Shown: positions 27,593 through 52,257, numbered from the stretch's first letter. The stretch: 52,257 nucleotides of DNA from Candidatus Avigastranaerophilus sp. (GCA_045639725.1 JAZUDR010000328.1:1-52257); one strand, 5' to 3'. Numbers and translations: made by a program. The notes: generated by a model not told the origin, from the letters alone.

Positions 27593-27594
27593 GC

Positions 27595-28134: not shown

Positions 28135-28998
28135 ATGATGATTGCTGCAAAGAAAAGAGGCTTCACTTTCATAGAAGTCTGCATGTCAATACTTATACTA
28201 TCCCTTGTATTTGGTGTGGCGGCCGGAATAATGAGCTATTCACGCAAGGAATCAGAAAAGGGGCGATGGATTCAGCAGAGCCTCGGCATGCTTCGTAATG
28301 CAACAAGACAGATTGGTGACAAACTTAAGGAAAAGTCCTATCCGTCAACTCTGGTTGCTAATCGTTCTGCTACTGATGCTACAAAATTTAACCAGATTGT
28401 TATTTCTTTTAAAGAACGCCGTGAATACGACAGCACTGGTAGACTTAGATTCATGGAAGTTAATGATAGTAATATCTACGAAATCTTTGCTGCTACCAAT
28501 GGTGGTTTAATTGCTCCTACTGATATGCAGATTCTATTGATGTATTTCCCCATATGTACACCGGAAAAAGACTTCCAGAGTGACTATACACCTGGTTTGA
28601 TTACTTGGGTCAGATTCGTTCTTGAACCTGCAGCTGATTTTGAATATACAAAGCGTGGTAAAATCGTAATGGAAGAGTATGAAGCTAATTACGATACACG
28701 CGAATATGAAATTGCCAGAGCCTATAAGCTTGATGATCCTTTCAATATTGAAACAGCTAAGCTGAAGCGCCAGAAGGAAATAATCACAGATGTCAGTGGT
28801 GTTCAGATTAAGAGCTTTGAAATGAGCAGCTCAAGAGGTTCATACGTTGACTCAAAATCTGGTAGCCGCTCAGAAGATTTTAAGCAGATAAAGAATATCA
28901 TAAATTTTAAAATTTACTGCACACATCCAAAGGACGACAAGGTCAAGATTACAGATACATGCTCTGTAACTGCCAATTCAGAAGTGATACCATTATAG
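28135..28998 (+). CDS. Prepilin-type N-terminal cleavage/methylation-domain pseudopilin (287 aa)
   Basis: MMIAAKKRG / FTFIEVCMSILILSLVFG: the canonical G/FTxIE signal. ATG directly follows the upstream TAA. Confidence 0.75.
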   Translation: MMIAAKKRGFTFIEVCMSILILSLVFGVAAGIMSYSRKESEKGRWIQQSLGMLRNATRQIGDKLKEKSYPSTLVANRSATDATKFNQIVISFKERREYDSTGRLRFMEVNDSNIYEIFAATNGGLIAPTDMQILLMYFPICTPEKDFQSDYTPGLITWVRFVLEPAADFEYTKRGKIVMEEYEANYDTREYEIARAYKLDDPFNIETAKLKRQKEIITDVSGVQIKSFEMSSSRGSYVDSKSGSRSEDFKQIKNIINFKIYCTHPKDDKVKITDTCSVTANSEVIPL

Positions 28999-35825: not shown

Positions 35826-36075
35826 AGCTTGAAGCCTGAAGCCTGAAGCTCGAAGCCTGAAGCTTGAAGCTTGAAGCCTCAAGCTCGAAGCTTGAAGCTG
35901 GAAGCTGGAAGCTGGAAGCCTGAAGCTTGAAGCTGGAAGCTTGAAGCTCGAAGCTGGAAGCCGGAAGCCTGAAGCTTGAAGCTTGAAGCTCGAAGCTGGA
36001 AGCCTGAAGCTTGAAGCTGGAAGCTTGAAGCTGGAAGCTGGAAGCTGGAAGCCTGAAGCTTGAAGCTCGAAGCCA
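35817..36075. repeat. Heptanucleotide tandem array B: GAAGC(T/C)N x37
   Basis: Counted unit by unit. There are 37 units in unbroken 7-bp phase. GAAGC is invariant except for one CAAGC. The last two positions vary (TT, CT, TC, TG, CG, CA). Degenerate units extend to 35810 and 36103. An identical 42-bp (6-unit) block occurs at 35887..35928 and 36020..36061. Confidence 0.95.
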
Positions 36076-37164: not shown

Positions 37165-37195
37165 CATACCCATAAACTTATAAAGTATGAAAAAT

Positions 37196-37223
37196 GCCAC
37201 TCGTAAGAGTGGCATTTTTTTTT
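37196..37223 (+). terminator. Rho-independent terminator
   Basis: Stem GCCACTC (37196..37202) pairs with GAGTGGC (37207..37213), followed by A then T9. Confidence 0.85.
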
Positions 37224-37239
37224 GCAATTTTAGTAAATA

Positions 37240-37248
37240 TGTTATATA
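37240..37248 (+). promoter_or_regulatory. Extended -10 promoter candidate (TGTTATATA)
   Basis: TGn+TATATA lies 30 nt upstream of ATG 37278, which has an AGAGG Shine-Dalgarno sequence. Confidence 0.35.
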
Positions 37249-37277
37249 GTATATCCCTACAAAAAAAGAGGTTAGAA

Positions 37278-39878
37278 ATGACAGAAAAATCTACATTGTG
37301 GAATACACTCGAAAGCAATCCTGCATATAGTAAATATCTAATGCGGGCATTTGAGCTTTACGAAAAAAGAAAAACTCCAGAAACACACGACGGGGTCAGC
37401 ATGTTAGAGCATGCTGTTGGTCATTGTACTGACGTAAAAATAATCCAATACATGGCTGAGAACAAATTCTGGCATTGTAAGGGAGAGCCTTTTGATTTTG
37501 CCATAGCGGCTACTGCTATTCTTAATCCAAATGAAAAGATTCTGGAATATCTTATTACTCAGGGACTTTGTTTGGAAGAAGATAAAGAACATGGCTGCGG
37601 TCCTTTACACATTGCCTGCGCAGATAACAGCAATCCAAAAGTTATAAAAACAATCATAAATGCTGGTGCTGATATAAATCTACGTGAAACAGAAACTGGT
37701 GTTACGCCATTTCTTATGGCTGCTTCCAAAAATAATAATCCAGAGATCCTTAAGGTTTTGAAAAAAGCCGGTGCAGATATATTCGCAAAGACCAATGATG
37801 GTAAGAGTGCTTTACATATTGCAGCCAAAGAAAATAATAATGCAGAAATACTTGAAACATTAATAAGCTTTGGTCTAGATGTTAACGAAGAAGACAATGC
37901 TGGTTGTACACCATTTATGTATGGTGTTACCAGACCAAATGCTGAAATATTTAAAACCTTGATAAAGCATGGCGCACACCTTATTGTGAAGGATAAGCTT
38001 GGCCAAAGCCCGTTATTCTATGCTGCTTATTTGAATACAAATCCGTTAGTTGTCAGGACAATGCTTAGAATAGGTTATCCTGTTAACGAAAAGAATATTG
38101 AAGGCAGAACACCTTTGATGTATTCCAGTCTGAATGTTAATGATGAGATAGCTGGAATTCTCATAGATAACGGTGCCGATGTTAATGAAGTAGACGCAAC
38201 CGGCAAAAAAGCTTATTGCTATGTTCTTGAGCAGACACAGAGTACAAAGATAGTTAAAAAGATGGCTGCATTGAGCAATTTTGCCAATGACGAGCATGTA
38301 AGATGGCTGTTTTTAGCTGCTGTTGCCGGTTATAATAATTTGCCAATGCTGAAATACGTTTTAAAGCTTGGCGCTGATATTAATACTAAGAATTCTGATA
38401 ATCGCTCTGTATTGCATTTTGCGGCATCTTCAAGTGTAAATCCAAAGGTATTGCAGTTCTTGGTTAAGTCTGGTCTCGATGTGAATGCACTGGACGATAT
38501 CAAGGCTACCCCTTTCCTTTATGCTGCCAGAGGAAATCAGTCTCCAGAAGCTTTAATGACATTGCTTCAACTAGGTGCTGACCCACATATTACCCATAAT
38601 GACAAACGCAGCGCTTTGCATATTGCCTGCGAACAGAATCCGTCATTAGCCACAGTTGAATTCCTGGTAAAGTCAGGCCTGTTTAATATTAACGAAAAAG
38701 ACTCCCTTGGATTTTCACCGTTCCTTTATTCAACAGCGAATCCTAATCTGGATGTTATGAAGATGCTGGTTAAAAATGGTGCGGACACCAAGGCTACAGA
38801 TAGCGAAGGCTGCAATGCTTTGTGCGTAGCTGGTAGTAATGCACATTCCCCAGAGTTTATTGATTATCTTGTTGATGAATTGAAGCTTCCTATCAGGTCT
38901 AAGGGGAAAAATGGCTACGATTCAATATATTATTGTGCTTTCAATAACTGTTCTGTAGAGGTTTTGGACCGACTTGTTGTACATGGAGCTGAGCTTTACA
39001 GATTCTATCAGAACGGTATGAATCTATTGATGATTGCCTCAAGATTCAATATGAATCCTGAGATTGTAAGGTATCTTGTTAAGACAGCAAGGATAAATGT
39101 TAATCTGCGCTCACGTGAACCTGAAGGCGAAGATGAAATAGCTCCTGATGAAGTAAAAGCAGAAGTTATAAAACAGCTTGAAGCAGAGGCAGAAGCTGAA
39201 GAACTGAAGAATAAAAAGTATGTACCTTATAGGGATACATACAAAAAGGGTACAACAGCAATAATGCACGCTGCCTGCAATATTAATATTGAAATACTGG
39301 AAACTTTAATTGGGCTTGGAGCAAATATTCATGACCACGATAAGGCTGGTCGTGACCTACTTAATTATGCTGCGGGCTCAAATGAAAACCCGATAATTCC
39401 GAAGATACTTATTTCTAAGTATGGTTTCAGAACTAATCGTAGAGACGAAAACGAGGCAACAGCAGTTTTTGATGCTGCCATGAATCCGAACGTCGAAACG
39501 ATGCAAAGCATTCTTGAATATGGCGGTGATTTGTATATTCAGGCTGCTGGTGGTGTTACTCCATTAATGATAGCTTCTATAGTAAACCCGAATCCTGAAA
39601 TGATTAAGTTTTTATTGGAACAGGGACTTTCGGTTCATGATAGCGATGACAGTGGCATGACTCCATTGCTTCACGCTGCTGCTACCAATGAAAATCCAGA
39701 GGTTTGCGAAGTTTTGATAGCCGCTGGTGCAAGTATATATGATGAAAACTCTCAGGGCAGTAATGCCGTAGCTCTTGCCAGATCTAATCCAAATCCGGCT
39801 ATATATCACACTATCATGAAGTATGCTTCAATGAATGTTGCACCAAAAGAAGACCACGAAGACGTCGTAGTTAATTAA
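37278..39878 (+). CDS. Large ankyrin-repeat protein (866 aa)
   Basis: 33-aa periodicity throughout (G-x-TPLxxAA ... NPE[IV]hxxLhxxGADhN). My hand count of the N-P-E-[IV] helix motif gives about 20-23 repeats. They are interrupted by an acidic coiled segment (EPEGEDEIAPDEVKAEVIKQLEAEAEAEELKNKK). No signal peptide is visible. Confidence 0.85.
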   Translation: MTEKSTLWNTLESNPAYSKYLMRAFELYEKRKTPETHDGVSMLEHAVGHCTDVKIIQYMAENKFWHCKGEPFDFAIAATAILNPNEKILEYLITQGLCLEEDKEHGCGPLHIACADNSNPKVIKTIINAGADINLRETETGVTPFLMAASKNNNPEILKVLKKAGADIFAKTNDGKSALHIAAKENNNAEILETLISFGLDVNEEDNAGCTPFMYGVTRPNAEIFKTLIKHGAHLIVKDKLGQSPLFYAAYLNTNPLVVRTMLRIGYPVNEKNIEGRTPLMYSSLNVNDEIAGILIDNGADVNEVDATGKKAYCYVLEQTQSTKIVKKMAALSNFANDEHVRWLFLAAVAGYNNLPMLKYVLKLGADINTKNSDNRSVLHFAASSSVNPKVLQFLVKSGLDVNALDDIKATPFLYAARGNQSPEALMTLLQLGADPHITHNDKRSALHIACEQNPSLATVEFLVKSGLFNINEKDSLGFSPFLYSTANPNLDVMKMLVKNGADTKATDSEGCNALCVAGSNAHSPEFIDYLVDELKLPIRSKGKNGYDSIYYCAFNNCSVEVLDRLVVHGAELYRFYQNGMNLLMIASRFNMNPEIVRYLVKTARINVNLRSREPEGEDEIAPDEVKAEVIKQLEAEAEAEELKNKKYVPYRDTYKKGTTAIMHAACNINIEILETLIGLGANIHDHDKAGRDLLNYAAGSNENPIIPKILISKYGFRTNRRDENEATAVFDAAMNPNVETMQSILEYGGDLYIQAAGGVTPLMIASIVNPNPEMIKFLLEQGLSVHDSDDSGMTPLLHAAATNENPEVCEVLIAAGASIYDENSQGSNAVALARSNPNPAIYHTIMKYASMNVAPKEDHEDVVVN

Positions 39879-39924
39879 ATTGATTAGATTTTGCGTTGTT
39901 ATCGGATATTGGCGCTATTTCCTA

Positions 39925-39959
39925 ATTGAAAATTGAGAATTGAGGATTGAGAATTATTG
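39925..39959. repeat. Short heptanucleotide array ATTGA(A/G)(A/G) x5
   Basis: ATTGAAA ATTGAGA ATTGAGG ATTGAGA ATTATTG in 7-bp phase. Lies between the convergent stops of the ankyrin gene (39878) and rsmD (39970). Confidence 0.6.
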
Positions 39960-40533: not shown

Positions 40534-42642
40534 TTAACCACCTTCCATAAAGGTTTTATAGGACTCACCAAAGGAGCGGACCATCTGCTGATGGAACCAA
40601 TCTCGAACCTCTGCTGGGTCGATTGTAAGTATTTCAAAAGCACGCTTTCTGGCGTTTTCTACAAGCTTTTGAGGTATTCTATGAGAGAAGCAAGGGTGAC
40701 CTAGACCACTCTGGCGGGTTCCGACCAGGTCTCCAGGGCCTCTGAGCTTGAGATCTTCCATAGAAAGCTCGAAGCCGTCATTGGTTGATGCTAGAACATC
40801 TAGCCTTTCAGCATTTTCATCATTATGAGAAATGAGTATGCAGTGCGAAGCATCGGCACCGCGACCAACCCTGCCTCTAAGCTGATGAAGCTGTGAAAGA
40901 CCGAAACAGTCTGCGTTTTCAATAATCATTAATGTAGCATTAGGATTATCTACACCAACTTCTACGACTGTGGTTGCAATAAGAATCTGCAACTGGCGGT
41001 CCTTGAAGCTTTGCATGACCATTTCTTTTTCATCCCAAGTCTGGGCACCTGTAAGAGTAGCATAAGTTGCCTCCGGAAGCAAATCGCTGACTCTGTCGGC
41101 TGCTTCCTCGACGGAAACCCAGTCTCTTTCATCAGAAAGCTCAATTAAAGGGCAGACTATGTATACCTGGTTTCCTGCTGCAAGAGTAGCCTCTATGTCA
41201 GGAACTACAGATTTAAAGCTTCGTTCAATCCTAGTGGCGACAGGTGTTCTGCCGGGAGGCATTTCATTGATGATGCTTGTATCCATATCGCCAAAAATTG
41301 TCAGGGAAAGGGTTCTCGGAATTGGTGTGGCAGACAGAAGCAACTGGTTTGGGTTACTTCCTTTGTTGAAAAGTAGTCTTCTGTGGTTGACTCCGAAACG
41401 TTGCTGCTCATCAATGATACAATAGCCTAATTCTCTAAATTTTACATTTTCAGAGAACATGGCATGGGTTCCGAATACAAATGTTGCTGCGCCGGTTGCT
41501 ATTAAATCATTGGCTAGGCGCTTTTCTGCTGTTTTCTGACTGCCAGTTATGATGACTGCCTTATCAGCAAACTGTGGGAAGAATTTCTTGAAGTTGATTA
41601 GGTGCTGTCTTGCCAATATTTCTGTGGGAGCCATGAATGCGCACTGATAGCCAGGTGCCAGTTCAAGACAGAAATGGAGCATTGAAAGGAACGCAACTAA
41701 TGTTTTACCAGAACCTACATCTCCCTGAAGAAGACGGTTCATTGGTGGTCTTGCTTTATCTTCTTTTTCAACAGGAGTTAGATTATTTTTAAGGTCAGCC
41801 ACTATTTCACTTAAAGCCTCTGTCTGACCGTTGGTAAGATTGAACGGCAGCGGGTAGGGCGATTCAAAACGTGGTGGCTTGTTCGAATCAGGCATTGTCA
41901 GGTAGCCAGTAAGATGTTCACGACGCTTTAAAACGCCAATCTGGAAAAGAACCTGATCAAAAAATGCCAGAGTAAATTTGGCCTTCTGGAGGGTTTCTTC
42001 GGTATGTGGCCTGTGAATTTCGGCTATGGCTTCAATGATTTTATCAAAGGCTGTGCCTCTTAATGCGCCAGGTAAGGAATTTTCCCAGTCAATATTGTCG
42101 AGAAGCTGTGCTATTAGCTTACGAAGACCGAGAGGTGAAATATGTGCTTCTGCCAGTCTTGCGTTAGATGGATAAATAGGGGTCAGAACATCTGCACGCT
42201 GGCCGTTGGCTTCTTCAATTCTTTCTACTTCTGGATTATTGATAATCAGGTTGTTTCCAACCTTGCCAATGGTGCCAAATACCCAGTATTCAACGTTTGG
42301 TAGTAACTGTTTGGTCAGATATGTTCTATTGAACCACTTTGCAGAAATCTTACCGGTTTTGTCATGAAAATTAGCTGTAATTACGGTGAGTCCGCGGCGG
42401 GCAAAAGCTGATTTTATGGAATCTAGAGTTACACGAAGCAAGCACATTTTTCCGTTTTCAATCATTGAAACAGGTGTTGCTTTGCGGCGGTCTTGATATT
42501 TTGTAGGGTAGAATCTCAGGATATCAAAAACACATTGACATCCTGCTTTATTAAGTGCTTCAGCCTTTTTGGGACCAACACCGGCAATATTTCCTACCGG
42601 ATCGTCCAATACAATTTTTGTATTCTTTACAGCTCTTGCCAT
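40534..42642 (-). CDS. recG: ATP-dependent DNA helicase RecG
   Basis: N-terminal wedge/OB region, then LLQGDVGSGKTLVA (Walker A), CIIDEQQRFG (DEQH box), LLLSATPIPRTL, and QLHQLRGRVGRG. ATG 42642 directly follows the stop of the upstream HEAT/TPR gene. Confidence 0.95.
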   Translation of the reverse strand: MARAVKNTKIVLDDPVGNIAGVGPKKAEALNKAGCQCVFDILRFYPTKYQDRRKATPVSMIENGKMCLLRVTLDSIKSAFARRGLTVITANFHDKTGKISAKWFNRTYLTKQLLPNVEYWVFGTIGKVGNNLIINNPEVERIEEANGQRADVLTPIYPSNARLAEAHISPLGLRKLIAQLLDNIDWENSLPGALRGTAFDKIIEAIAEIHRPHTEETLQKAKFTLAFFDQVLFQIGVLKRREHLTGYLTMPDSNKPPRFESPYPLPFNLTNGQTEALSEIVADLKNNLTPVEKEDKARPPMNRLLQGDVGSGKTLVAFLSMLHFCLELAPGYQCAFMAPTEILARQHLINFKKFFPQFADKAVIITGSQKTAEKRLANDLIATGAATFVFGTHAMFSENVKFRELGYCIIDEQQRFGVNHRRLLFNKGSNPNQLLLSATPIPRTLSLTIFGDMDTSIINEMPPGRTPVATRIERSFKSVVPDIEATLAAGNQVYIVCPLIELSDERDWVSVEEAADRVSDLLPEATYATLTGAQTWDEKEMVMQSFKDRQLQILIATTVVEVGVDNPNATLMIIENADCFGLSQLHQLRGRVGRGADASHCILISHNDENAERLDVLASTNDGFELSMEDLKLRGPGDLVGTRQSGLGHPCFSHRIPQKLVENARKRAFEILTIDPAEVRDWFHQQMVRSFGESYKTFMEGG

Positions 42643-45027
42643 TTATCTTTCTGGTTCTGTGTAACCAAGTGCTGTCTTGGTAAATACATAACCCTTCAGG
42701 ACCTGTTTGATGGCATTTTCCTGTTGAGGTGCCTGAGAACACATCTTCAAGGTTAAATCCATAGCGTTGAAGGCTTCCTGAGGCCTGTTGGTGTAATTAT
42801 AGCAATAGGCAAGAAGTATGCTGGCTTCTACGTCTACAGGTGAAATATCAAGAGCTTTTTCCAATACGACAATGGCTTCATCAAACTGGTGAAGCTGCAT
42901 GTGAAGAGCTGCAAGTTTCTGGTAAATAACAGGGTTACGAGGTGAAAGATCTGCAGCTCTTGTCAAAAGCTTAATACTGTCACTGTATTTGCCTGCAATC
43001 TGATAAATCTGAGCAAGAAGCAGGTATGCGCCAAGAATCTTCGGATAAATGCTAAGAGCCTTAACAAGATACTGGAGAGAGGTTTCGTATTTACGTGCGC
43101 AGAAATAAATAGTTCCGAGGTTGAAGAGTGCTTTAACGATGTTAGGATTAACTTCAAGAGCGTCCTTATACAATCTTGCAGCTTCGTTATTGCGCTTAAG
43201 CATGAACAGCATGTTAGCATGTGCAAGCAGTGCTTTGACATGTTTCGGTGATTTCAGATGGATAGCATTGAATATTTCTTCTGCTTCGTCATATTCCTTG
43301 TTAGCAATGTAATCGGCTGCCTGTGTAAGTTCTTCGGCAAAGCTGTTATCGGGAAGAATTTCATTACTGATAAGAACAGTCTTCGGAGCTTCGTCCTGGC
43401 TCTGGTCAATCGGTGAATCTTCTTTGGTTGCTTCACGGGTTGCTGGAAGCTGTTGCGGCTTAGCTGGTTCTATGGCAGCTTTTGTTTCAGGAGCACTAGC
43501 TTCTGGTGCAACTTCTGCAGTTTCTTCTGCATTGAGCTTGTTGATTTCATCAGGATTTTCAATCAGTTCAGCAATGATATTGTTGATTGAATCTGACATC
43601 TGGTCATCGTTGCTGATTTCCTTACCGATTTCGCCTAGAACGAAGGTTGCAGATTGGATAAGCTTCTTGTCGTTGCTCTTAAAGAAGCCGCGAAGATTAT
43701 CTAATACAGAATATTCACCCCAGATCCAGAGGGTTCTGATGGCAGTGCTCTTTACACGGTTGTCATCATGGCTCAGTAAATATTTGAGGCGGCCTAAGAG
43801 TGAATTGTCAGGCTTTTTGCAAAGCTTAACAAGTGCGTCAATAGTATTGGAAATAACACGTGGGTCTTCGCTGCTAAGGTAATTAGATATTACTGGAACA
43901 GCTTCTTCCTTGCCAAGCTGACCTAAGCAGGAAATACATGTTGCCTGAACAATGTGGTTTTCTTCATTGGGAAGGTGATTAGCGATGTGTTCGTAAGCAA
44001 CACCGGGAGCACATCTTGTTAATGACTGAATTGCTTCAACACGGACGTCGAAGTTGGGGTCATTAAGCATTGGAATAAGGTTTGGTGTTGCTTCAGAGAG
44101 TTCTATCTTTCTGATTGCATTTGCTGCATTTCTTCTAACATCGGAATCTTCATCCTTAAGGGCTCTTGAAAGAAGGTGGATGAACTTCGGATCATTGATT
44201 TCACCAATTGCATAGGCTGCAGATGCACGATACCATTTGTCACCATGCTCAAGCATTTCAGTGAGAGTTTCGGTAACGTCGAAATCGCCATATTTCCAGA
44301 TGGCCTTTGCAACATTTGCTCTGACACGATTGTTGGGGTCTTCAAGGTAAGGCTGAAGAATACCAACAATAGAACCTGATTTTATACCTTCAATAGCTTC
44401 GATTGCATTTGCTCTGACACGGGGGTCTTCATCGCGAAGTGCACCCTGGAAAACAGGCATGAGCTTGTCGCTGGCCATCATTCCTAAAGCCATAATAACA
44501 GAAGCTCTGATACGGGCATTCTTTTCATTGGCATAAAGTCGCTTTAAAAGACTGTTAGCCATCCAGTTCTTAATTTTGCCGAGAGCAATGATTGCGCCAA
44601 TAATGGAATCTTCTTCAAAGAAGATAAGGGCATCGTCTACGATGTTTTCCTTGTCTGCAGAGTGGAGATTCGAATCAATATAATTGTTGAGGGCTTCCAT
44701 CAGGATGTCGAATGCTTCAGGATTTTCCATCATACCCAAAGCGCGGGCGGCATTGAAACGAACTTCCTGACTCGGATCTTTGAGCGCGTTAATTAAAAGC
44801 TTTACTGATTTGCTGGAATCAATGTTGCCAAGTGCAAGGGCCATAAAGTCCTGCATATTGTCACTTTCATAGGTTTCAAGCAAAAAGTCTGTGGCTTTTT
44901 CGCCCTTGAATTTTGAGAGAGCGATAGCTGATTCACGGCGCTGGTTATAATCACCAGCTAAAAAGTTGTGTATAAGCTTTGCTAATAATGGTTTTATATT
45001 GTTAACAACAATCTGATTGGCTTCCAT
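42643..45027 (-). CDS. HEAT (PBS-lyase-like) repeat + C-terminal TPR protein, paralogue A (794 aa)
   Basis: Repeated D-x-(D/N)-x-x-VR-x-x-A-x-x-A-L/I-G units (DPSQEVRFNAARALG, DEDPRVRANAIEAIE, DPNNRVRANVAKAIW, DEDSDVRRNAANAIR, DPNFDVRVEAIQSL). A Pro/Glu/Ala-rich linker is followed by about six TPR units. AGAGGG Shine-Dalgarno sequence. Confidence 0.8.
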   Translation of the reverse strand: MEANQIVVNNIKPLLAKLIHNFLAGDYNQRRESAIALSKFKGEKATDFLLETYESDNMQDFMALALGNIDSSKSVKLLINALKDPSQEVRFNAARALGMMENPEAFDILMEALNNYIDSNLHSADKENIVDDALIFFEEDSIIGAIIALGKIKNWMANSLLKRLYANEKNARIRASVIMALGMMASDKLMPVFQGALRDEDPRVRANAIEAIEGIKSGSIVGILQPYLEDPNNRVRANVAKAIWKYGDFDVTETLTEMLEHGDKWYRASAAYAIGEINDPKFIHLLSRALKDEDSDVRRNAANAIRKIELSEATPNLIPMLNDPNFDVRVEAIQSLTRCAPGVAYEHIANHLPNEENHIVQATCISCLGQLGKEEAVPVISNYLSSEDPRVISNTIDALVKLCKKPDNSLLGRLKYLLSHDDNRVKSTAIRTLWIWGEYSVLDNLRGFFKSNDKKLIQSATFVLGEIGKEISNDDQMSDSINNIIAELIENPDEINKLNAEETAEVAPEASAPETKAAIEPAKPQQLPATREATKEDSPIDQSQDEAPKTVLISNEILPDNSFAEELTQAADYIANKEYDEAEEIFNAIHLKSPKHVKALLAHANMLFMLKRNNEAARLYKDALEVNPNIVKALFNLGTIYFCARKYETSLQYLVKALSIYPKILGAYLLLAQIYQIAGKYSDSIKLLTRAADLSPRNPVIYQKLAALHMQLHQFDEAIVVLEKALDISPVDVEASILLAYCYNYTNRPQEAFNAMDLTLKMCSQAPQQENAIKQVLKGYVFTKTALGYTEPER

Positions 45028-45259
45028 GAAGATACCCTCTTATTACTTGGTGCAACTAATATATCAAAGATTTAGCTAGTAATAAAGAACTACTTTGTGA
45101 ATAATTCTAAAGTAATTAATTAAATTTACTTAATCTGAATGTTTGATAAAAGACTGCATAAATAATCGGCTATAGATAATAAGATTATTAGAGGTCTTCG
45201 GCTTGGTTTTATGCTTTTTATAAGGTTGTTTTCAGTTTGTTTTTTTTGCCGGGAAAGTA

Positions 45260-45268
45260 TGCTATACT
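45260..45268 (+). promoter_or_regulatory. Extended -10 promoter (TGCTATACT) exactly 6 nt upstream of the pilT-1 ATG: leaderless candidate
   Basis: TGC+TATACT, AATTCT, then ATG 45275. Confidence 0.45.
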
Positions 45269-45274
45269 AATTCT

Positions 45275-46366
45275 ATGGCAGACGAAAAAAGCTTATATAG
45301 ATTATTAAAACTTACATTTGACCAGAACGCATCAGACTTGCATCTGAAGGTCGGTAAAATTGCGTGTATCCGCGTCGACGGGCATATTACACCTGTTGAA
45401 GGTTATAAGTTCAGTAAAAATGATTTCGAAAAAATCATCGAAGCTTTGCTGAATCCTGAACAGGAAGCGCAGTTCCGCAAAAATCATGAGCTTGACTTTG
45501 CTTACACCCTTGAAGGTGTTTGCCGCTTCAGAGTAAATCTTTATACTGATTTAAACGGTCCGGGTGCTGTGTTCAGAGTTATTCCATACCGTGTTATGGA
45601 TTTTGATGAGATAGGGTTGCCCAATGCTGCCCGAAGGCTGATTGAGCAGCCAAATGGTCTGATTCTCATTACCGGCCCCACAGGCGCTGGCAAGACTTCG
45701 ACTCTGGCAAGCTATTTGAGTTACGTAAATCAGAATGCAAAGCGTCACATTGTGACTCTTGAAGACCCGATTGAATACCAGTTTGAAGATCAGTTGTCTT
45801 TTTTCAATCAGCGCCAGGTTGGTGTTGACTGCAGAAGTTTCTATGAAGGTCTTTTAACAGTATTGCGACAGGACCCAGACATTGTTGTCGTAGGTGAAAT
45901 GCGTGACCCGGAAACGATTTCATTGACTCTAAATGCTGCAGAAACTGGGAAACTTGTTATCGCAACTTTGCATACCAATTCCGCTGTTGCAACTGCTGAA
46001 CGTATTGTTAATGTTTTCCCGGAAGACAGACACAATCAGATTCTTTTGCAGCTTTCTATGGTATTGCGCGGCGTTGTTTCCCAGACTTTGCTCAGAAGAA
46101 CAAATGGCGGTCGTGTTGCTGCTTTTGAACTTCTGTTGAATACTTCTGGGGTAAGAAGCCTTATAGCCGAAGGTAAGATCCACATGCTTCCATCTTATCT
46201 TGAAACAGGTGGCGAAACTGGTATGATGACAATGGAAATGTCATTGGCCCAGCTTGTAAAGGATAAGATAGTTACTCCTGAAGAAGCTTTTGCTTCCGCT
46301 CCGAATCCAAATGCTTTGCGTAAGCTTTTAATGCCAAAGCCAATGCAGAGTCAGGTTCAGGGTTAA
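45275..46366 (+). CDS. pilT: Type IV pilus retraction ATPase PilT (copy 1, canonical motifs)
   Basis: ASDLHL N-terminal block, GPTGAGKTST (Walker A), TLEDPIEY (Asp box), DPDIVVVGEMRD (Walker B plus catalytic Glu), ATLHTNSA (His box), GVRSLIAEGK. Confidence 0.9.
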   Translation: MADEKSLYRLLKLTFDQNASDLHLKVGKIACIRVDGHITPVEGYKFSKNDFEKIIEALLNPEQEAQFRKNHELDFAYTLEGVCRFRVNLYTDLNGPGAVFRVIPYRVMDFDEIGLPNAARRLIEQPNGLILITGPTGAGKTSTLASYLSYVNQNAKRHIVTLEDPIEYQFEDQLSFFNQRQVGVDCRSFYEGLLTVLRQDPDIVVVGEMRDPETISLTLNAAETGKLVIATLHTNSAVATAERIVNVFPEDRHNQILLQLSMVLRGVVSQTLLRRTNGGRVAAFELLLNTSGVRSLIAEGKIHMLPSYLETGGETGMMTMEMSLAQLVKDKIVTPEEAFASAPNPNALRKLLMPKPMQSQVQG

Positions 46367-46376
46367 GGAGGATTGA

Positions 46377-47420
46377 ATGCAGACTTTAAAGATACATAGA
46401 TATTTTGACATAGCTATTGAACGTCAAGCCTCTGACCTTCATTTGAAGGCTGGTTCACCACCAATCATCAGAGTCGGAGGTCGTCTTATTACATTAGCCG
46501 AAGAACCTCTTGCCTTCCAGGAAATGCCAAACCTTTTTCTGCCATTGATGGAATTGAAGGACCAGCAGGACCTTAAAACAAGATTTGAAGCTAACTTTAT
46601 GACTGCCTACAAGAGCCGTTTTAGAGTCAGAGCTTGTATATATACACAACGCGGCTGCCTCAGCGGCGCTTTCCGATTTATTCCTCAGAATGTGCCTTCA
46701 ATTGAAAGCTTAGGTCTGCCACCTATTCTGAAGGATATCGCACAGCTCCCGCGCGGTCTTTTCCTTGTTACTGGTCCGGCAAACTCAGGCAAGACTCACA
46801 CTCTTGCTGCAATTATTAACGAAATTAACAAAACCTCGGCCCGTCACGTAATTACTATTGAAGACCCTATAGAATTTGTTTACCGCGAAAAGAAATCTAT
46901 TTTCACCCAGCGCGAAATAGGTGTAACTTCGAATAGCTATTCAAGCGCTCTTATGAACGCTTTGCGCGAAGACCCGGATGTAATTCTCGTTGGTGAAATG
47001 CGCGATGTGGATACGATTGAAATGGTTCTGACTGCCGCGGAAACAGGTCACCTGGTTTTCTCGACTCTGCATACTGTTGGCGCTGTTCAGACCATAGACC
47101 GTATTGTAAATATGTTCCCAGGCCATAGACATGATGAAATCAGAACTCAGTTGTCTATGTCACTCATAGGAATTATTTCGCAGATATTGCTACCAAGCCT
47201 CCATAAAAAGGAACGCGTAATGGCACACGAAATAATGATTATGAACTCAGCAATGAGAAATCAGGTAAGAGAAAAGAAAACAAATCAGCTTAAGTCTGCC
47301 TTGATGCTTGCACGTAAGGACGGTTGCAAGACCTTGAAGGACTCTTTGTCTGAAATCCTAAAAGATGAACGCGTTGATCCAAAGCTTATCGCTAACATCA
47401 TGAGAGAAATTGTAGAATGA
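46377..47420 (+). CDS. PilT/PilU-family ATPase (copy 2, canonical motifs)
   Basis: GPANSGKTHT, TIEDPIEF, DPDVILVGEMRD and STLHTVGA. AAGGAGG Shine-Dalgarno sequence; start lies 10 nt after the pilT-1 stop. Confidence 0.85.
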   Translation: MQTLKIHRYFDIAIERQASDLHLKAGSPPIIRVGGRLITLAEEPLAFQEMPNLFLPLMELKDQQDLKTRFEANFMTAYKSRFRVRACIYTQRGCLSGAFRFIPQNVPSIESLGLPPILKDIAQLPRGLFLVTGPANSGKTHTLAAIINEINKTSARHVITIEDPIEFVYREKKSIFTQREIGVTSNSYSSALMNALREDPDVILVGEMRDVDTIEMVLTAAETGHLVFSTLHTVGAVQTIDRIVNMFPGHRHDEIRTQLSMSLIGIISQILLPSLHKKERVMAHEIMIMNSAMRNQVREKKTNQLKSALMLARKDGCKTLKDSLSEILKDERVDPKLIANIMREIVE

Positions 47421-49576
47421 CGAAGCAACAACAAAACGAAGATATTGAAGCATTTAGATATGTAAAAGCTGGTAGAAGGCTGATGAAGCCTATTACAGAT
47501 AAGCTTGAAGCACTCGTTAAGAACGAGGATATATCTGACGAACTAAGGTTTGAAGCATTGATAAGTCTTGGTAAAATTGGCGATAACGAATCTTTGCCGA
47601 CTTTGACAAGAATTTTCAATGAATATCCAGACTACTTGGAACCTATTACTGCCTTAGGGCATTATAAGAGCAGCACTCCTGTTTCAAAGCTTATCGAACG
47701 ACTTCAGGACCCCGATTCCCTCTATAAGGAAGAAATCGTCAGAGTTTTGGGTGAAATCGGTGACCCGATGGCTACTAAGACTTTGATGGAGCTCCTTCAT
47801 GATGAAGACAGAATGGTTCGCTATTATTCTGCCAGAGCTCTTTACAAAATGGGTGGCCGCGATGTTGTTCAGGCTCTTTGCAGCTTGCTTAATGACCCAG
47901 ACGAATGGATTGTTATTAACGTTCTTGAAATTCTTTCCAAAATGAAGGACCCGGATGCTATACCAGCTTTGGTAGGGCAGTTTGAAGTAATCAGGGACTC
48001 ACGTCTTAAGGCTATTATCATTTCGTCTCTTGCTAATTTCGCTGAAAGCAAGCTTCTTAAGACCTTTGAAAGCGCTTTGGATTCATTTGATTCACGTATT
48101 CAGGCTAATGCCGTTGAAGCTATTTCAATGCTCAAGATACCTGGCCCAGAAATGAAAAGAAAGCTTAAACGCTTCTACGGTCATCCAAATAACAGAGTCA
48201 GGGCAAATATGTGTATTGCTCTGGCTAATGCTGATACAAAAGCCGTTTTTGAAGAAATAGGCTGTATGCTTGTAAGCCGTGATGCTTCCACAAGACGTTC
48301 TGCTGCTTATGTTCTTGCGAGAATTGATTGTGAAAAGAGAAGCGAATATATTCATACTTTGCTTGAAGATGAAAACTTTGGTGTCAGAAAGATGGCCCTC
48401 AGAGCAGCTCTGGCATTGGGCGATGCTGTAGGTGTTACAGAAATCAAGCCTTTGCTGAATGATGAAAATCAGTGGGTTCGCCGCGAAGTTGTTGAATGTG
48501 CTCTTGGTATGGACGATTTCCCGAACGACCTGATTCTTGCCCGTTTGAAGAAGGAAGATTGTCCTCCTGTTGTTGAGCTTTTGCTTAAATATGTTGTAGA
48601 CAGGCATTTGTATGAAGCCGTTCCGATGATTTATGAACGCATCAAGAGGGAACCAGAAGAAGAAATGCCGTGGCTCATTTCTGCATTAGGTCACTTGGGT
48701 GCTGTAAAAGAGCTTAATCAGGCTAAGAAATTCCTTAGTGCGGTTAGAGCCAGTGTATTTGTAGAATACTATCAGGCACTTTTGTTGAACGGCGACCTGA
48801 GCATATTCAAAACCATATCTGATAATCTTGATGAAAAGAAACGTGAACAGGAGCTTCTTTCCTGGACAAACGTCGCAGGTGTTCTTGGCAACTTTATTCA
48901 GGATACTAAGTCATATTCAAGAGTTTTACTGGAAGCTCTTGGACGTGAAGTCAAGATTGATATGGGTGAACTAGCAGATGATGCTGTTGCGGGTGCTGTT
49001 GAAAATACAGACGAACTCATGGCTAAGGGGCGTGAATTCTATCTCGTAAAAGACTACAGCCGTGCTTCACAGCATTTTGAAAAGGTTGTTGCTGCCCGAC
49101 CCCATGATCTTGATGCCCGTTATTTGCTGGCAAATTGTTCTTATTACCTTGGTGACGCTAACAGAGCATGTGACCTTCTTGAAAAGATTCTTGTTGCAAA
49201 GCCTTCACATATTGATGCTGGTATTCTGCTTGGTCAGATGTATTTCAGACGTAAGGACTGGAAGCAACTGGCAGACTGCTACAATAAATTGAAGGATTTC
49301 ATCAAAAGTGACGATAAAAAGAATGAAATCAGGGTTTATGGCGCACTGGGGCTTGCATACTTCAATCTGAAGCATTATGAAGAAGCTATAGAAGCTTTGA
49401 ATAGAGGGTTGAAGGCAAATCCCCGTGACCTGTCGTCTTCCTACCACCTGGCTCTATGCTATTATTCTGTTGGTAATGCTGAAAAGGCCAGAACAATTCT
49501 TGAAGGTCTGAGAAAGACCTTGCCGCCTGATAGTCAGGTATTGAAGAACGTTCTCGAGTTGCTGCAGAGGATGTAG
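47417..49576 (+). CDS. HEAT (PBS-lyase-like) repeat + C-terminal TPR protein, paralogue B (719 aa)
   Basis: HDEDRMVRYYSARALY, NDPDEWIVINVLEIL, HPNNRVRANMCIALA, DENFGVRKMALRAAL and NDENQWVRREVVECAL units, then about five TPR units. ATGA overlap with PilT copy 2. Confidence 0.8.
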   Translation: MTKQQQNEDIEAFRYVKAGRRLMKPITDKLEALVKNEDISDELRFEALISLGKIGDNESLPTLTRIFNEYPDYLEPITALGHYKSSTPVSKLIERLQDPDSLYKEEIVRVLGEIGDPMATKTLMELLHDEDRMVRYYSARALYKMGGRDVVQALCSLLNDPDEWIVINVLEILSKMKDPDAIPALVGQFEVIRDSRLKAIIISSLANFAESKLLKTFESALDSFDSRIQANAVEAISMLKIPGPEMKRKLKRFYGHPNNRVRANMCIALANADTKAVFEEIGCMLVSRDASTRRSAAYVLARIDCEKRSEYIHTLLEDENFGVRKMALRAALALGDAVGVTEIKPLLNDENQWVRREVVECALGMDDFPNDLILARLKKEDCPPVVELLLKYVVDRHLYEAVPMIYERIKREPEEEMPWLISALGHLGAVKELNQAKKFLSAVRASVFVEYYQALLLNGDLSIFKTISDNLDEKKREQELLSWTNVAGVLGNFIQDTKSYSRVLLEALGREVKIDMGELADDAVAGAVENTDELMAKGREFYLVKDYSRASQHFEKVVAARPHDLDARYLLANCSYYLGDANRACDLLEKILVAKPSHIDAGILLGQMYFRRKDWKQLADCYNKLKDFIKSDDKKNEIRVYGALGLAYFNLKHYEEAIEALNRGLKANPRDLSSSYHLALCYYSVGNAEKARTILEGLRKTLPPDSQVLKNVLELLQRM

Positions 49577-49578
49577 TT

Positions 49579-49611
49579 GGAAGCAGGAAGCTGGAGAGCA
49601 GGAAGCAGGAC
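49579..49611. repeat. Short heptanucleotide block GGAAGCN x~5
   Basis: GGAAGCA GGAAGCT GGAGAGCA GGAAGCA GGAC. Starts 3 nt after the stop at 49576. Confidence 0.6.
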
Positions 49612-49650
49612 ATTATTATATACGAAGCAAGTATAATGTTTGTTGCAATA

Positions 49651-49685
49651 GGCTATTGGCTCTTAGCTTTTGGCTGTTGGCCGAG
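49651..49685. repeat. Short heptanucleotide block GGCTNTT x5 (opposite orientation to the AGC-core units)
   Basis: GGCTATT GGCTCTT AGCTTTT GGCTGTT GGCCGAG in 7-bp phase. A third short block, GGAAGCA GGAGAGC TTAGAGC, lies at 49701..49721. Confidence 0.55.
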
Positions 49686-49759
49686 AACAAGCAGGCCGAC
49701 GGAAGCAGGAGAGCTTAGAGCTTATTTATGAAAAATTACTAATGAAGAAAGGGTTTTTG

Positions 49760-50806
49760 ATGTCTGAATTAGTTAAAATATGGGACTTGGTTAAGGCAAA
49801 GAAGCCTTCTGATATTCATTTGTCTCCGAATCAGAGGGTATATTACAGAGTAAATGGTGTGCTTGAAAAGCTTGATACCATTGTTACAGAAGACCAGATT
49901 AAGAAAATTATCCTGGCCACTAGCACTCCTAAGGCTAGAGAAATACTTGGTCATCAGCGCCAGGTTACTTATGCTGAAAATGTAGATGGCATCGGTCGTT
50001 TGAGATTCTCCGCTTTCTTTGAACGTGGCCGTTTTGCTATTTCTCTTCGCGTTATTGAAGATAGCTTTATGGAACTTGAAGACCTTGGAATCAATGAAAT
50101 GCAGAAAAAGGCTCTTTTCCAGCAGTCAGGTCTTGTGCTTGTAGGTAGCCCGTCCTGTGAAGGCAAATCTACAACAATTGCCTCTATTCTGAATTACATG
50201 AACCATAACTTCCAGAAGAGCATTTATACCATTGAAAACCCTGTAGAATTTGTATATCAGGATGATAAGGCAGCCTTCATACAGCGCAGTATTCCAGTAG
50301 ATATTTCCAACTTCTATAATGGTCTTTGTGAAGCTTACCGCGTAGACCCGGATGTAGTTGTTACTGACTCAGTTGTTTATGCTGACGCACTCGATCAAGC
50401 CCTTACCCTTGCTGAATCCGGGTGCTTGGTAATTGCTTCAACTGACGGTGGTGACTGCCTCCAGATTATTGAAAGACTTACAGGTCTCAGAGTTCCTGAA
50501 GAACGTGAAAATCTTAGACAGAGAATTGCTAACCAGCTCAGAATGATTATAAGCCAGAGACTTGTGCCTACGATTAATAACGAAAGCCGTAAGCCGATTT
50601 TCGATATTATGATAAACACTGTTCAGATGAAGGACCTCATCAAGAAGAACAATGTCAGCATGTTCAGAACAATTCAGAGCCAGAAGGAAGCAGATGGTAT
50701 GCGGACTTTTGACAAGCAGCTTCAGAACCTTGTTGGTAAGAAGATTATTTCTATGAAGACTGCCATTGAATTTGCAATTGATAAGAACAAGTTTGTTGCT
50801 ATATAA
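49760..50806 (+). CDS. PilT-family protein with degenerate catalytic motifs (copy 3, 348 aa)
   Basis: PSDIHL N-terminal block and PilT-like length. The motifs are altered: VGSPSCEGKST (first P-loop Gly lost), TIENPVEF (Asp to Asn), DPDVVVTDSVVYAD (no GEMRD) and ASTDGGDC in place of TLHT. GAAAGGG Shine-Dalgarno sequence lies 6 nt before ATG 49760. The track start 49670 lies inside the repeat block. Confidence 0.75.
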   Translation: MSELVKIWDLVKAKKPSDIHLSPNQRVYYRVNGVLEKLDTIVTEDQIKKIILATSTPKAREILGHQRQVTYAENVDGIGRLRFSAFFERGRFAISLRVIEDSFMELEDLGINEMQKKALFQQSGLVLVGSPSCEGKSTTIASILNYMNHNFQKSIYTIENPVEFVYQDDKAAFIQRSIPVDISNFYNGLCEAYRVDPDVVVTDSVVYADALDQALTLAESGCLVIASTDGGDCLQIIERLTGLRVPEERENLRQRIANQLRMIISQRLVPTINNESRKPIFDIMINTVQMKDLIKKNNVSMFRTIQSQKEADGMRTFDKQLQNLVGKKIISMKTAIEFAIDKNKFVAI

Positions 50807-50817
50807 GAGGTGAAGCC

Positions 50818-51858
50818 ATGGATGTGAAAAAGTTAATTGAAAAAGTTGTTACATTAGGCGGTAATGAATTACATCTTAAGATTGGTTCTCAGCCTCTTAT
50901 CCGAAAGAATAATAATTTGACTGCCATGGATATGCCAGCTTTGATTGAAGCAGACATGACAAGTCTTATTGAAGATCTCTTGACTTCAGATGAAGCTGCA
51001 AAATTCAGTAAGACTGGTGTTTTTGAAGCAAATCATTTTGGTCAGCCACCCTGCAATTTCAGGCTTTCATTATTCCATTCTCAGCAGAAGCCAGTTGCTT
51101 ATATAAAGCTGATAAAATCTGAAATTCCTACAGTAGAAGAAATTGGTTTCCCAACAAGCGTTTCCAACCTGCTGAGTTCACCAAAGGGATTGATGATTCT
51201 TACAGGTCCGTCCCGTTCCGGAATTTCTACCTCAATGGCTGCTTTGGTAGAACATATGAACGCAAAATACAAGAGACATATTCTTGTAATAGAAGACCCG
51301 ATTCAGTATTACTATGAACCGAAGGAATGCATTATTTCCCAGCGTCAGTTCTCAAAGGATATTTTCATGGTCGAACAGGGGATTAACTTTGCAAAGCGCA
51401 TGGATGTTGATGCTCTTGTTATTGGTGACCTCAAACGTGATATTCCTTTTAAGAATGTAATGGAATATGTTGCCGGTGGTAATCTGGTAGTGCTCTGTAT
51501 GCAGACCCTCGGTGCCGTTGCTGCTCTTGAAAAGATTGTATATTCATTCCCAGAAAACTATAGAGATTTTGTAAATCAGGTTCTTACCGAAAACCTGCTT
51601 GCAGTCTGCTCTCAGACATTGATTACCAATTCATCTGGAGTAAATGTTCCGATACACGAAGTATTCATTCCTAATAAGAACACTGAAAATATTACTCAAT
51701 ACGGTAAGTATCAGCAGCTTGAAGGTAATATAAGCACTGCTGGTGCAGGTAGCAGATTGTTTAGGGATGAACTCAAGGATAAGATTGCTGCCGGTAAGCT
51801 TGATAAAGCTTCTGCAGACGTTTTCTTCGAAGCTTATAAAGGCACTAGATTGCAATAA
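50818..51858 (+). CDS. PilT-family protein with degenerate catalytic motifs (copy 4, 346 aa)
   Basis: GNELHL N-terminal block. GPSRSGISTS (P-loop Lys to Ile), VIEDPIQY retained, ALVIGDLKRD (Glu to Asp) and LCMQTLGA (His to Gln). AGAGGTGA Shine-Dalgarno sequence; start lies 11 nt after copy 3. Confidence 0.75.
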   Translation: MDVKKLIEKVVTLGGNELHLKIGSQPLIRKNNNLTAMDMPALIEADMTSLIEDLLTSDEAAKFSKTGVFEANHFGQPPCNFRLSLFHSQQKPVAYIKLIKSEIPTVEEIGFPTSVSNLLSSPKGLMILTGPSRSGISTSMAALVEHMNAKYKRHILVIEDPIQYYYEPKECIISQRQFSKDIFMVEQGINFAKRMDVDALVIGDLKRDIPFKNVMEYVAGGNLVVLCMQTLGAVAALEKIVYSFPENYRDFVNQVLTENLLAVCSQTLITNSSGVNVPIHEVFIPNKNTENITQYGKYQQLEGNISTAGAGSRLFRDELKDKIAAGKLDKASADVFFEAYKGTRLQ

Positions 51859-51860
51859 AA

Positions 51861-52042
51861 TAAAGCTCTAAGCTATAAGCCTAAAGCTTGCAGCTTAAAG
51901 CTTAAAGCCTAAAGCCTAAAGCCTAAAGCTTAAAGCCTAAAGCATAGAGCCTAAAGCTTAAAGCTTAGAGCCTAAAGCTTATAGCTTATAGCTTATAGCC
52001 TAGAGCTTAGAGCTTAGAGCTTATAGCTTATAGCTTATAGCT
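51861..52042. repeat. Heptanucleotide tandem array D: T(A/G/C)NAGC(T/C/A) x26
   Basis: Counted unit by unit. There are 26 units in unbroken phase (TAAAGCT, TAAAGCC, TAGAGCC/T, TATAGCT/C, one each of CTAAGCT, ATAAGCC, TGCAGCT and TAAAGCA). The array begins 3 nt after the pilT-4 stop. Its last base is the first base of the recN-like stop codon complement. Confidence 0.95.
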
Positions 52043-52248
52043 TAATTAGTAAGTAACGAACGGGCGAAGGTTAAGCCGTCTTTATCTGTTCGGCCAAGCA
52101 TTCTTGCGATTTCTTCGACACGTTCATCGCCTTCGACACGGTTAATATGAACTTCGGTCTGGTCACCGTTAACAGTTTTGGTAACAGTGAAATGATGAGT
52201 TCCTTCTTTGGCAATCTGGTGAAGATGAGTTACCAATAAAACCTGTTT
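52042..52248 (-). CDS. recN: RecN C-terminal fragment (68 codons), bounded upstream by an in-frame TAA 9 nt from the window edge
   Basis: KQVLLVTHLHQIAKEGTHHFTVTK ... ERVEEIARMLGRTD ... ARSLL matches the RecN C-terminal QV(L/I)xVTHLPQ(V/I)A ... E(I/L)ARMLGG region. The frame contains TAA at 52249..52251 (minus strand), so the gene may be disrupted. See findings. Confidence 0.6.
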   Translation of the reverse strand, partial: KQVLLVTHLHQIAKEGTHHFTVTKTVNGDQTEVHINRVEGDERVEEIARMLGRTDKDGLTFARSLLTN

Positions 52249-52257
52249 TTAAGTCGG

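Follow-up and report, generated by a model that had tools for sequence, protein, structure and literature searches.

What a genome gains from keeping motor ATPases that seem unable to turn over ATP is a question raised by a stretch of DNA of 52,257 nucleotides deposited under the name Candidatus Avigastranaerophilus sp. (GCA_045639725.1 JAZUDR010000328.1:1-52257; the whole stretch is hereafter called the window). The operon in question belongs to an uncultivated Riflebacteria genome and carries four PilT-family genes, designated T1 to T4, of which T1 and T2 are catalytically intact and T3 and T4 have lost catalytic residues in two different ways. The associated HEAT/TPR genes are referred to as HTu and HTm, and the pseudopilin genes found in related genomes as pp1 and pp2. 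PilT-type motors have been studied as homo-hexamers whose protomers cycle through open and closed nucleotide-dependent states, and it is an open question of the field how PilU and other accessory paralogs are coupled to PilT motors. As judged from its sequence, the operon appears to encode the motor of a type IV filament-like machine, to be specific to Riflebacteria and to be composed of two modules. Its novelty lies in two PilT-fold proteins that are degenerate in different ways and conserved as a pair, within a motor operon of seven genes.

Motifs kept and lost in the four PilT-family proteins

The listing of the open reading frames (ORFs) of the window confirmed four full-length PilT/PilU-family genes in tandem on the plus strand, as proposed by an initial annotation of this DNA: T1 (45275..46366, 363 amino acids), T2 (46377..47420, 347 amino acids), T3 (49760..50806, 348 amino acids) and T4 (50818..51858, 346 amino acids). 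The Pfam T2SSE profile, which the same annotation had suggested as a check, matched all four proteins with E values from 1e-46 to 3e-11. The NCBIfam model TIGR01420 (PilT/PilU) was the best-scoring model for each of them, far ahead of the others for T3 and T4. The scores of T1 (414.8 bits) and T2 (394.6 bits) exceeded the curated whole-protein cut-off of 319.1 bits, while those of T3 (259.9 bits) and T4 (211.9 bits) fell below it. Pairwise identity was 37% between T1 and T2, about 26-28% between T3 or T4 and T1/T2, and 20% between T3 and T4; the four genes appear from these sequences to be old paralogs. Shine-Dalgarno-like stretches were found ahead of T2 (AAGGAGGA) and of the T4 ATG (AGAGGTGA), and AAAGGG lies 8 nt upstream of the T3 ATG, in agreement with the good ribosome-binding sequences first reported for T3 and T4. 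The mechanical ORF of T3 begins at a TTG at position 49670; since all orthologs begin at the Met of position 49760, this ATG was taken as the true start.

The motifs were compared by phmmer searches against all PDB chains, using the solved PilT/PilU structures as reference and numbering residues on Geobacter PilT, with the offset checked on T221 and H230. All four proteins aligned over their full length with E values from 1e-45 to 1e-92 and showed no insertions or deletions at the motifs; in the T3/T4 pair, one alignment spanned residues 1-332 and the other residues 10-345. Every substitution that had been listed for T3 and T4 was recovered in these gap-free alignments.

T1 displayed GPTGAGKTS as Walker A, LEDPIEY as Asp box, VGEMRD as Walker B and TLHT as His box, and its best solved match was Geobacter PilT (6ojx, 311 bits). 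The corresponding motifs of T2 were GPANSGKTH, IEDPIEF, VGEMRD and TLHT, with 5zfq as the best solved match (293 bits). The consensus GPTGAGKT[ST], [LI]EDPIE, GEMR[DE] and TLHT was present in 34/34 T1 orthologs, and the T2 motifs were intact in 32 of 33 orthologs (GEMRD in 32/33). The C-terminal PilT motif AIRNLIRE was closely resembled in the T2 family by AMRN[LQM][IV]RE (AMRNQVRE in the window) and partially in T1 by AVRSLIA[DE], and was not matched in T3 or T4. With all four motifs present and both scores above the TIGR01420 cut-off, T1 and T2 belong to the PilT/PilU family and deserve the description as catalytically intact that they had been given. As a side observation, one T2 ortholog carries GKMRD where GEMRD is expected and, in one metagenome-assembled genome (MAG; L048, 5519-6692), the T2 ortholog is made up of two overlapping ORFs, reflecting a frameshift or an assembly error.

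The same four positions are occupied in T3 by SPSCEGKST (Walker A), IENPVEF (Asp box), VTDSVVY (Walker B) and STDG (His box). The protein is thus devoid of the first Gly of the P-loop, which is replaced by Ser, of the Asp-box Asp, of the catalytic Glu and of the His-box His. It retains the Walker A Lys and Thr/Ser, both arginines of the N-domain RxR motif and both Asp-box glutamates, and the equivalent of Arg278 occurs in most T3 orthologs, although not in all. These features define a family signature common to 45 genomes, consisting of SPS[GC][EHQ]GK[TS], [IV]ENPVE, [ST]DS[ILV]xY and xxGG. In both PilT and PilU, ATP binding depends on Walker A and hydrolysis on Walker B (PMC6762196), and the E204A and H229A substitutions in PilT each abolish twitching (PMC6858323). 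Since T3 keeps the nucleotide-contacting residues and has lost both the catalytic Glu and the His contacting the gamma-phosphate, it would most likely bind ATP with very slow or no hydrolysis.

The AlphaFold2 (AF2) monomer model of T3 had a predicted local distance difference test (pLDDT) score of 85.5, and a Foldseek search returned PilT4/PilU as top hits, with a template modelling (TM) score of 0.92 to 6ojx_A. The most conserved stretch of the whole T3 family is the segment IILxTSTPKAREILG in the N-terminal domain (residues 50-64, window positions 49907-49951). Because ordinary PilT proteins have no counterpart to it, the segment represents a candidate partner-binding surface.

T4 is altered in a different manner, showing GPSRSGIST (Walker A), IEDPIQY (Asp box), IGDLKR (Walker B) and CMQT (His box). 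Ile stands in place of the Walker A Lys in 47/47 genomes, the first of the two RxR arginines is missing, the E and T of ETGH are lost (AGG[HN]) and the His is changed to Gln in most orthologs. T4 retains the Asp box, the second arginine of RxR and, where the catalytic Glu would stand, an Asp. GPxRSGI[ST]T, EDPI[EQ], GDLK[RH] and MQ[TNS] predominate across the 47 genomes. Since both the Walker A Lys and one arginine have gone, T4 has most likely lost the canonical mode of nucleotide binding. The AF2 monomer of T4 (pLDDT 89.7) again returned PilT4/PilU as top Foldseek hits, with TM scores up to 0.87, and the E values of the T3 and T4 models to PilT4/PilU ranged from 1e-32 to 1e-34. As for domain orientation, the T3 model was nearest to ATP-bound PilT4 and that of T4 to PilU/ADP-state chains, but this was set aside as evidence for open or closed states because monomer predictions fix the inter-domain angle unreliably.

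The classification of T3 and T4 as pseudo-ATPases, put forward in the initial annotation, agrees with the substitutions seen against solved structures and with the predicted PilT/PilU fold of both proteins. Over their full length, both show the two-domain organisation of PilT, with a PAS-like domain at the N-terminus and a RecA-like ATPase domain at the C-terminus. The residues that each of them retains also fit the distinction suggested there between a protein that would bind nucleotide without hydrolysing it and one that would not bind it.

Conservation of the degenerate pair in Riflebacteria

The distribution of the two proteins was examined using one genome per GTDB species, which resulted in 47 loci. 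T3 and T4, each forming an ortholog family with identities of 43-96%, occurred together in 47 species-level Riflebacteria genomes and were adjacent in every case (47/47 loci). All but three of these loci carry Riflebacteria-type or "uncultured bacterium" labels. The exceptions are L003 (labelled Candidatus Avigastranaerophilus) and L026 and L047 (labelled Candidatus Methylomirabilis and Erysipelotrichia), whose names probably stem from mis-binning or mislabelling of MAG contigs.

When 5.8 billion proteins were searched with T3, about 99 orthologs at 45-96% identity were retrieved, followed by a sharp fall to about 32%, the level of ordinary PilT, and all informative names among the orthologs were Candidatus Riflebacteria, Rifleibacteriota or Ozemobacteraceae. 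T4 gave the same pattern, with orthologs at 45-100% identity. An exhaustive search of 1.84 billion cluster representatives with a hidden Markov model profile of T4 returned one full-length T4-type protein (605 bits) and two fragments, the remaining matches being either ordinary PilT (at most 236 bits) or tandem two-domain PilT fusions. The degenerate motifs were fixed across 45-47 genomes and kept down to 43-45% identity. The losses were fixed before the sampled Riflebacteria diverged, and the pair has so far been met only in Riflebacteria-type genomes.

The selective constraint on the genes was estimated by the Nei-Gojobori method as the ratio of nonsynonymous to synonymous divergence (dN/dS) for the window compared with L003, its closest relative, the synonymous divergence being unsaturated (dS 0.47-0.85). 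Values of 0.036 and 0.052 were obtained for T3 and T4 respectively, as compared with 0.044 for T1, 0.010 for T2, 0.057 for HTm, 0.058 for HTu and 0.015 for RecG. These data bear on the possibility that T3 and T4 are decaying pseudogenes or annotation artefacts, which might be suspected from their scores below the TIGR01420 cut-off and from a within-family divergence exceeding that of T1 and T2. Such an explanation is effectively refuted, since the ORFs were intact in every related locus covering them, the dN/dS values of about 0.04-0.05 are low, the family-specific motifs are held at the lowest identities sampled and the AF2 models are confident. The initial annotation, which had considered both copies as intact genes and had named frameshifts, absence or neutral drift in close relatives as grounds for giving up its view, was thus borne out on this point.

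Clear homology to PilT, the lack of essential residues and purifying selection across 47 genomes are the features by which pseudoenzymes are recognised. On this basis T3 and T4 can be described as pseudoenzyme derivatives of PilT kept by purifying selection, their inactivity being predicted from the residues they have lost. Despite their fold and descent, both proteins are filed outside PilT itself because they depart from its catalytic-motif definition and fall short of the TIGR01420 cut-off. The family signatures described above would allow annotation pipelines to drop the labels "twitching motility protein PilT" and "TadA" for T3 and T4.

Two modules and a putative adaptor of a filament motor

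The ancestral gene order, read from most of the related loci of sufficient length, is RecG and HTu on the minus strand, then T1, T2, HTm, T3, T4, pp1 and pp2 on the plus strand, followed by HU and RecN on the minus strand; the order of the four PilT-family genes, whose conservation the initial annotation had left to be checked in relatives, is therefore common to most of these loci. HTm (47417..49576, plus strand) encodes a 719-residue protein with HEAT and TPR repeats (HEAT_2, 2.9e-58; TPR_19, 1.2e-19). Its start overlaps the stop of T2 (ATGA), and this 4-nt overlap is present in 32/34 genomes. HTm orthologs carrying names (40-100% identity) all belong to Riflebacteria, after which identity falls to 25%. 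The paralogous HTu (42643..45027, minus strand, 794 residues) has N-terminal HEAT repeats (HEAT_2, 1.8e-70) and C-terminal TPR repeats of several families. It is divergently transcribed upstream of T1 in most loci extending far enough, while L004 shows the opposite orientation and order. From an inspection of their N-termini by eye, both proteins appear to be cytoplasmic.

The median gaps in 33-46 genomes were 11 nt for T1-T2, 11 nt for T3-T4 over 46 genomes and 3 nt for T4-pp1, with pp1 and pp2 overlapping, and the window itself showed 10 nt for T1-T2 and 11 nt for T3-T4. The gap between HTm and T3 had a median of 67 nt (range 11-303) and measures 183 nt in the window (49577..49759). This spacer, the only sizeable gap in the operon, is the boundary between two modules, the first consisting of T1-T2-HTm and the second of T3-T4, ancestrally together with pp1 and pp2.

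The two modules were found on separate contigs, each internally intact, in GCA_015232575.1 (T3-T4-pp1 and T1-T2-HTm) and in GCA_015233565.1 (T3-T4-pp1-pp2 and T1-T2-HTm). In both genomes the break falls exactly at the HTm-T3 gap, HTm remains with T1-T2, and the T1-type and T2-type motifs are intact. The divergence of the proteins across 31 genomes showed the same partition in a descriptive analysis of non-independent genome pairs: the partial correlation between T3 and T4 was 0.77 when T1 and T2 were controlled, and that of T3 or T4 with HTm about -0.1. T1 or T2 correlated with HTm at 0.76-0.82, and values of 0.72-0.82 were obtained among T1, T2 and HTm with T3 and T4 controlled. Since split contigs and covariation agree, the view of a single four-ATPase cluster tied to HEAT/TPR scaffolds had to be revised: a T1-T2-HTm unit does exist, but both gene order and covariation place the T3-T4 pair with the pseudopilins.

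The partition also bears on a brake or clutch mechanism, in which homo-hexamers of T3 and/or T4 would compete with T1/T2 or with an assembly ATPase for the platform and hold the filament static instead of linking it to the active motors. A full-length PilT fold makes ring formation and platform binding plausible, the catalytic residues are lost and T3-T4 can be located apart from T1-T2 in the genome, all of which would suit an inhibitor. On the other hand, two different dead paralogs are always adjacent and their divergences co-vary, so that joint assembly fits better than two independent inhibitors. Moreover, T3-T4 normally adjoins T1-T2-HTm within one operon, an arrangement that points to joint expression at comparable levels and not to conditional inhibition. 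We thus regard the brake as rather unlikely.

The association with filaments comes from the genes following T4 in relatives. The pp1 protein carries the prepilin N-methylation motif KGFTLIEMSVV (N_methyl, E value 8.7e-7) together with a weak GspG-like (T2SSG) domain, and pp2 has a hydrophobic prepilin-like N-terminus. In about 38 of the 47 loci pp1 comes immediately downstream of T4, and in about 33 it is followed by pp2. Through pp1, relatives therefore show the linkage of genes for class III prepilin signal peptides to ATPases that serves as a criterion for type IV filaments. Neither gene follows T4 in the window or its rumen/gut clade, the other members of which are goat abomasum, RUG and reindeer MAGs: in L003-L008, as opposed to L001 and L009-L049, pp1 and pp2 have been lost downstream of T4 and what follows T4 varies. 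A tblastn search for relocated copies in the window and in the loci of its rumen/gut relatives, with E values up to 10, gave nothing credible. Because T3 and T4 persist in this clade although pp1 and pp2 are gone from the locus, the link of the pair to these particular pseudopilins is not obligatory.

The genes of a complete pilus machine were not found nearby. No PilB, PilC, PilM-Q or secretin gene was detected among the ORFs of at least 150 residues scanned over the 52 kb of the window, a scan that left out ORF 245-724 (minus strand) and short nested ORFs, and no PilB/GspE, PilC/GspF, prepilin peptidase, alignment protein or secretin was present among the called genes of L001 and L002. The scan thus agrees with the initial annotation as to the missing machinery genes, but the statement that the window also lacks a major pilin has to be set against pilin-like genes at 26918-28998.

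These findings might suggest that T3-T4 has been repurposed for a process other than filament dynamics, such as DNA transactions, given its recG and hupB-recN neighbours. The operon does lie between RecG and HU/RecN in many genomes, the window clade dispenses with pp1 and pp2, and no other pilus machinery genes adjoin it. This interpretation is distinctly improbable in our opinion, because a prepilin-type gene lies within 3 nt (median) of T4 in 38 loci, the pairing of T4 with the prepilin survives where T3-T4 has moved away from RecG/RecN, and housekeeping neighbours on the opposite strand are weak functional evidence.

The reading that we favour, and to which we would give about an even chance of being correct, is that T3, nucleotide-bound with little or no hydrolysis, and T4, devoid of canonical nucleotide binding, act together as a non-catalytic adaptor or regulator of a type IV filament motor. 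T3 and T4 would form a non-catalytic ring or a component of one, most simply a T3/T4 hetero-oligomer, which would dock on the filament platform and there recruit, position or gate the active T1/T2 motors, with HTm and perhaps HTu acting as scaffolds for T1/T2.

Precedents for a dead partner of this kind are offered by PilT/PilU of V. cholerae and by FlaH/FlaI. In Vibrio cholerae, Pseudomonas aeruginosa and Neisseria, the retraction ATPases PilT and PilU of type IVa pili are adjacent paralogs acting jointly on a single machine, as is proposed here for T1-T4. In V. cholerae, two pilus systems continue to work through PilU when PilT is Walker-dead, but not when PilT is absent (PMC6762196), and the support of PilU retraction by this engineered Walker A or Walker B mutant indicates that a non-catalytic PilT-fold protein can be an adaptor. 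The natural PilT/PilU pairs keep all four motifs, both proteins being catalytically competent, whereas T3 and T4 are degenerate in two patterns and belong to a set of four paralogs with dedicated HEAT/TPR proteins. The nearest functional analogue to the proposed T3 is FlaH (ArlH) of the archaellum motor, a ring-forming P-loop protein that binds ATP without hydrolysing it, whose nucleotide-dependent binding to FlaI, a motor of the PilT superfamily, is essential and which assembles with the FlaX scaffold ring (PMC5019145). FlaH has a RecA/KaiC-like fold, however, and does not belong to the PilT family, nor is it accompanied by a second, nucleotide-blind paralog comparable to T4.

PilT expansions are also known from Myxococcus xanthus (PilT, PilU and three others, some adjacent, as in MXAN_6705 and MXAN_6706) and Geobacter sulfurreducens (PilT1-4). 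All of these paralogs have intact Walker A, Asp-box, Walker B and His-box motifs (PMC13584747; PMC5065972) and none is a pseudo-ATPase, unlike T3 and T4. Our literature search returned no paper linking PilT with pseudo-ATPases, with Riflebacteria or Ozemobacter pili, or with HEAT-repeat partners, and no characterised system of this composition, as had been stated from the outset.

Paralogous P-loop subunits that do not hydrolyse or do not bind nucleotide stand beside catalytic ones in F1 (alpha versus beta) and in the clamp loader (delta-prime). A stricter version of the scheme would follow these examples, with T3 and T4 forming an obligate alternating hetero-hexamer, a "frozen" PilT ring in which T3 would be permanently nucleotide-bound and closed-like and T4 permanently empty and open-like. 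Such a ring would serve as a static stator or adaptor on the platform, onto which T1/T2 rings organised by the HEAT/TPR proteins would dock. F1 and the clamp loader belong to other superfamilies, and hetero-oligomers are established there but only proposed for T3/T4; we regard this version as doubtful. If true, it would give the PilT/VirB11 superfamily its first heteromeric motor with a partly non-catalytic architecture, resembling F1 alpha/beta.

Several observations weigh against the adaptor reading. An invariant Asp stands one residue before the lost Glu in T3 ([ST]-D-S), T4 has an Asp at the Glu position together with a conserved Arg at P-loop position 4, and the strong constraint on these altered pockets could mean altered catalysis or a new ligand. 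The window clade lacks pp1 and pp2 at this locus and yet keeps T3/T4 under selection, neither PilB, PilC or PilD genes nor a secretin gene turned up in the vicinity of the operon, and the covariation statistic rests on non-independent genome pairs without a formal significance test.

The pocket residues lead to the alternative that T3 (through its Asp, Lys and Thr/Ser) and/or T4 (through its Asp and P-loop Arg) carries out a non-canonical nucleotide hydrolysis or binds another ligand, for instance a second messenger, with altered kinetics. In both families it is the altered segments around Walker A, Walker B and the His box that show the strongest conservation and the lowest entropy, with [ST]-D-S in T3 and G-D-L-K and GPxRSGI in T4 nearly invariant. 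However, each protein has changes in four or five distinct catalytic elements, a single E204A or H229A substitution already inactivates PilT in vivo, and T4 lacks the Walker A Lys needed for ATP binding in PilT and PilU. A non-canonical activity thus seems unlikely to us.

The operon offers a natural test of whether non-catalytic PilT subunits serve as adaptors or as fixed-state protomers, of whether hetero-oligomeric rings exist in this superfamily, and of what an intact nucleotide pocket contributes without hydrolysis. Its components are small soluble proteins, making heterologous expression feasible.

The pairing of a degenerate with another PilT domain recurs in the tandem PilT-PilT fusions retrieved with the T4 profile (P0200-P0212, P0217, P0220 and P0222, of metagenomic origin; L050, L051), proteins of 660-1024 residues with two PilT domains that rank just below the T4 representative because the scores of their two domains add up. 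Both halves are intact in P0200 and P0201, and several others have one degenerate half. The N-terminal half of P0208 reads SGNRGSGRS, LQDRIRF, DEVYG and YLGGD, that of P0217 has no Walker A, and P0209 and P0220 are degenerate in both halves. We know of no description of such proteins; they are rare, their contexts are uninformative and they provide an analogy only. Their interpretation as Rosetta-stone fusions of T3 and T4 was rejected, as both halves best match the generic T1 profile and not those of T3 or T4.

Repeat arrays and other features of the window

The region downstream of T4 is occupied by an array of about 26 heptamers of the TAAAGCT type, detected by Tandem Repeats Finder (TRF) at 51861..52045. 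It takes the place that pp1 and pp2, and in many genomes also HU, hold in most other Riflebacteria, and HU was not detected in the stretches examined from L003-L008. An array of the same kind lies between T4 and RecN in L003 (11041-11364) and none in L004. Other long intergenic arrays occur in the window at 2-216, 35817-36073 and 39924-39955, the types present being AGCTATA, GAAGCTT, AATTGAG and TAAAGCT. The heptamer arrays appear to be recent and specific to the lineage of this genome group. The cluster had been described as both interrupted and terminated by such arrays; the terminal array is real, but the interruption amounts to a TRF row of 33 nt (49578-49610) with short GGAAGCA-type repeats within the HTm-T3 spacer.

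The intergenic region between the divergent HTu and T1 (45028..45274) is AT-rich and, from its position, is presumed to contain promoters in both directions. A scan of 44900-52257 for consensus promoters and terminators gave counts no higher than those of shuffled sequence, and its result was not used.

The full arrangement with RecG on one side of the operon and HU and/or RecN on the other was seen in many Riflebacteria genomes. In the window, stretches with DNA-repair genes were found at 33651-35825, 40534-42642 and 52042-52257, a RecD2-type helicase is encoded 9 kb upstream of the operon, and the window ends inside RecN (minus strand, 52042-52257). A hint of DNA uptake taken from the recG and hupB-recN neighbours was retained only as an improbable alternative, because T3-T4-pp1 stays together in different genomic surroundings as well.

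A separate plus-strand cluster at 22731-28998 encodes a TPR protein (22731-24593), two secreted proteins (24702-25856 and 25853-26887), each with a secretion signal at the N-terminus and without any match in Pfam, and three small proteins. Of these small proteins, two are pilin-like with class III signal peptides, RKGLAFVEVMIACLML at 26918-27592 and KRGFTFIEVCMSILIL at 28135-28998, and the product of 27589-28134 is less canonical, representing a possible third pilin-like protein. From these features, the cluster may be a minor-pilin or pseudopilin set.

Finally, two overlapping minus-strand ORFs of about 1000 residues at 1920-7773 have almost no family matches, one of them showing a weak histidine-kinase segment, and the region 37194-39878 encodes an ankyrin-repeat protein of 894 residues (Ank_2, 2.5e-86).

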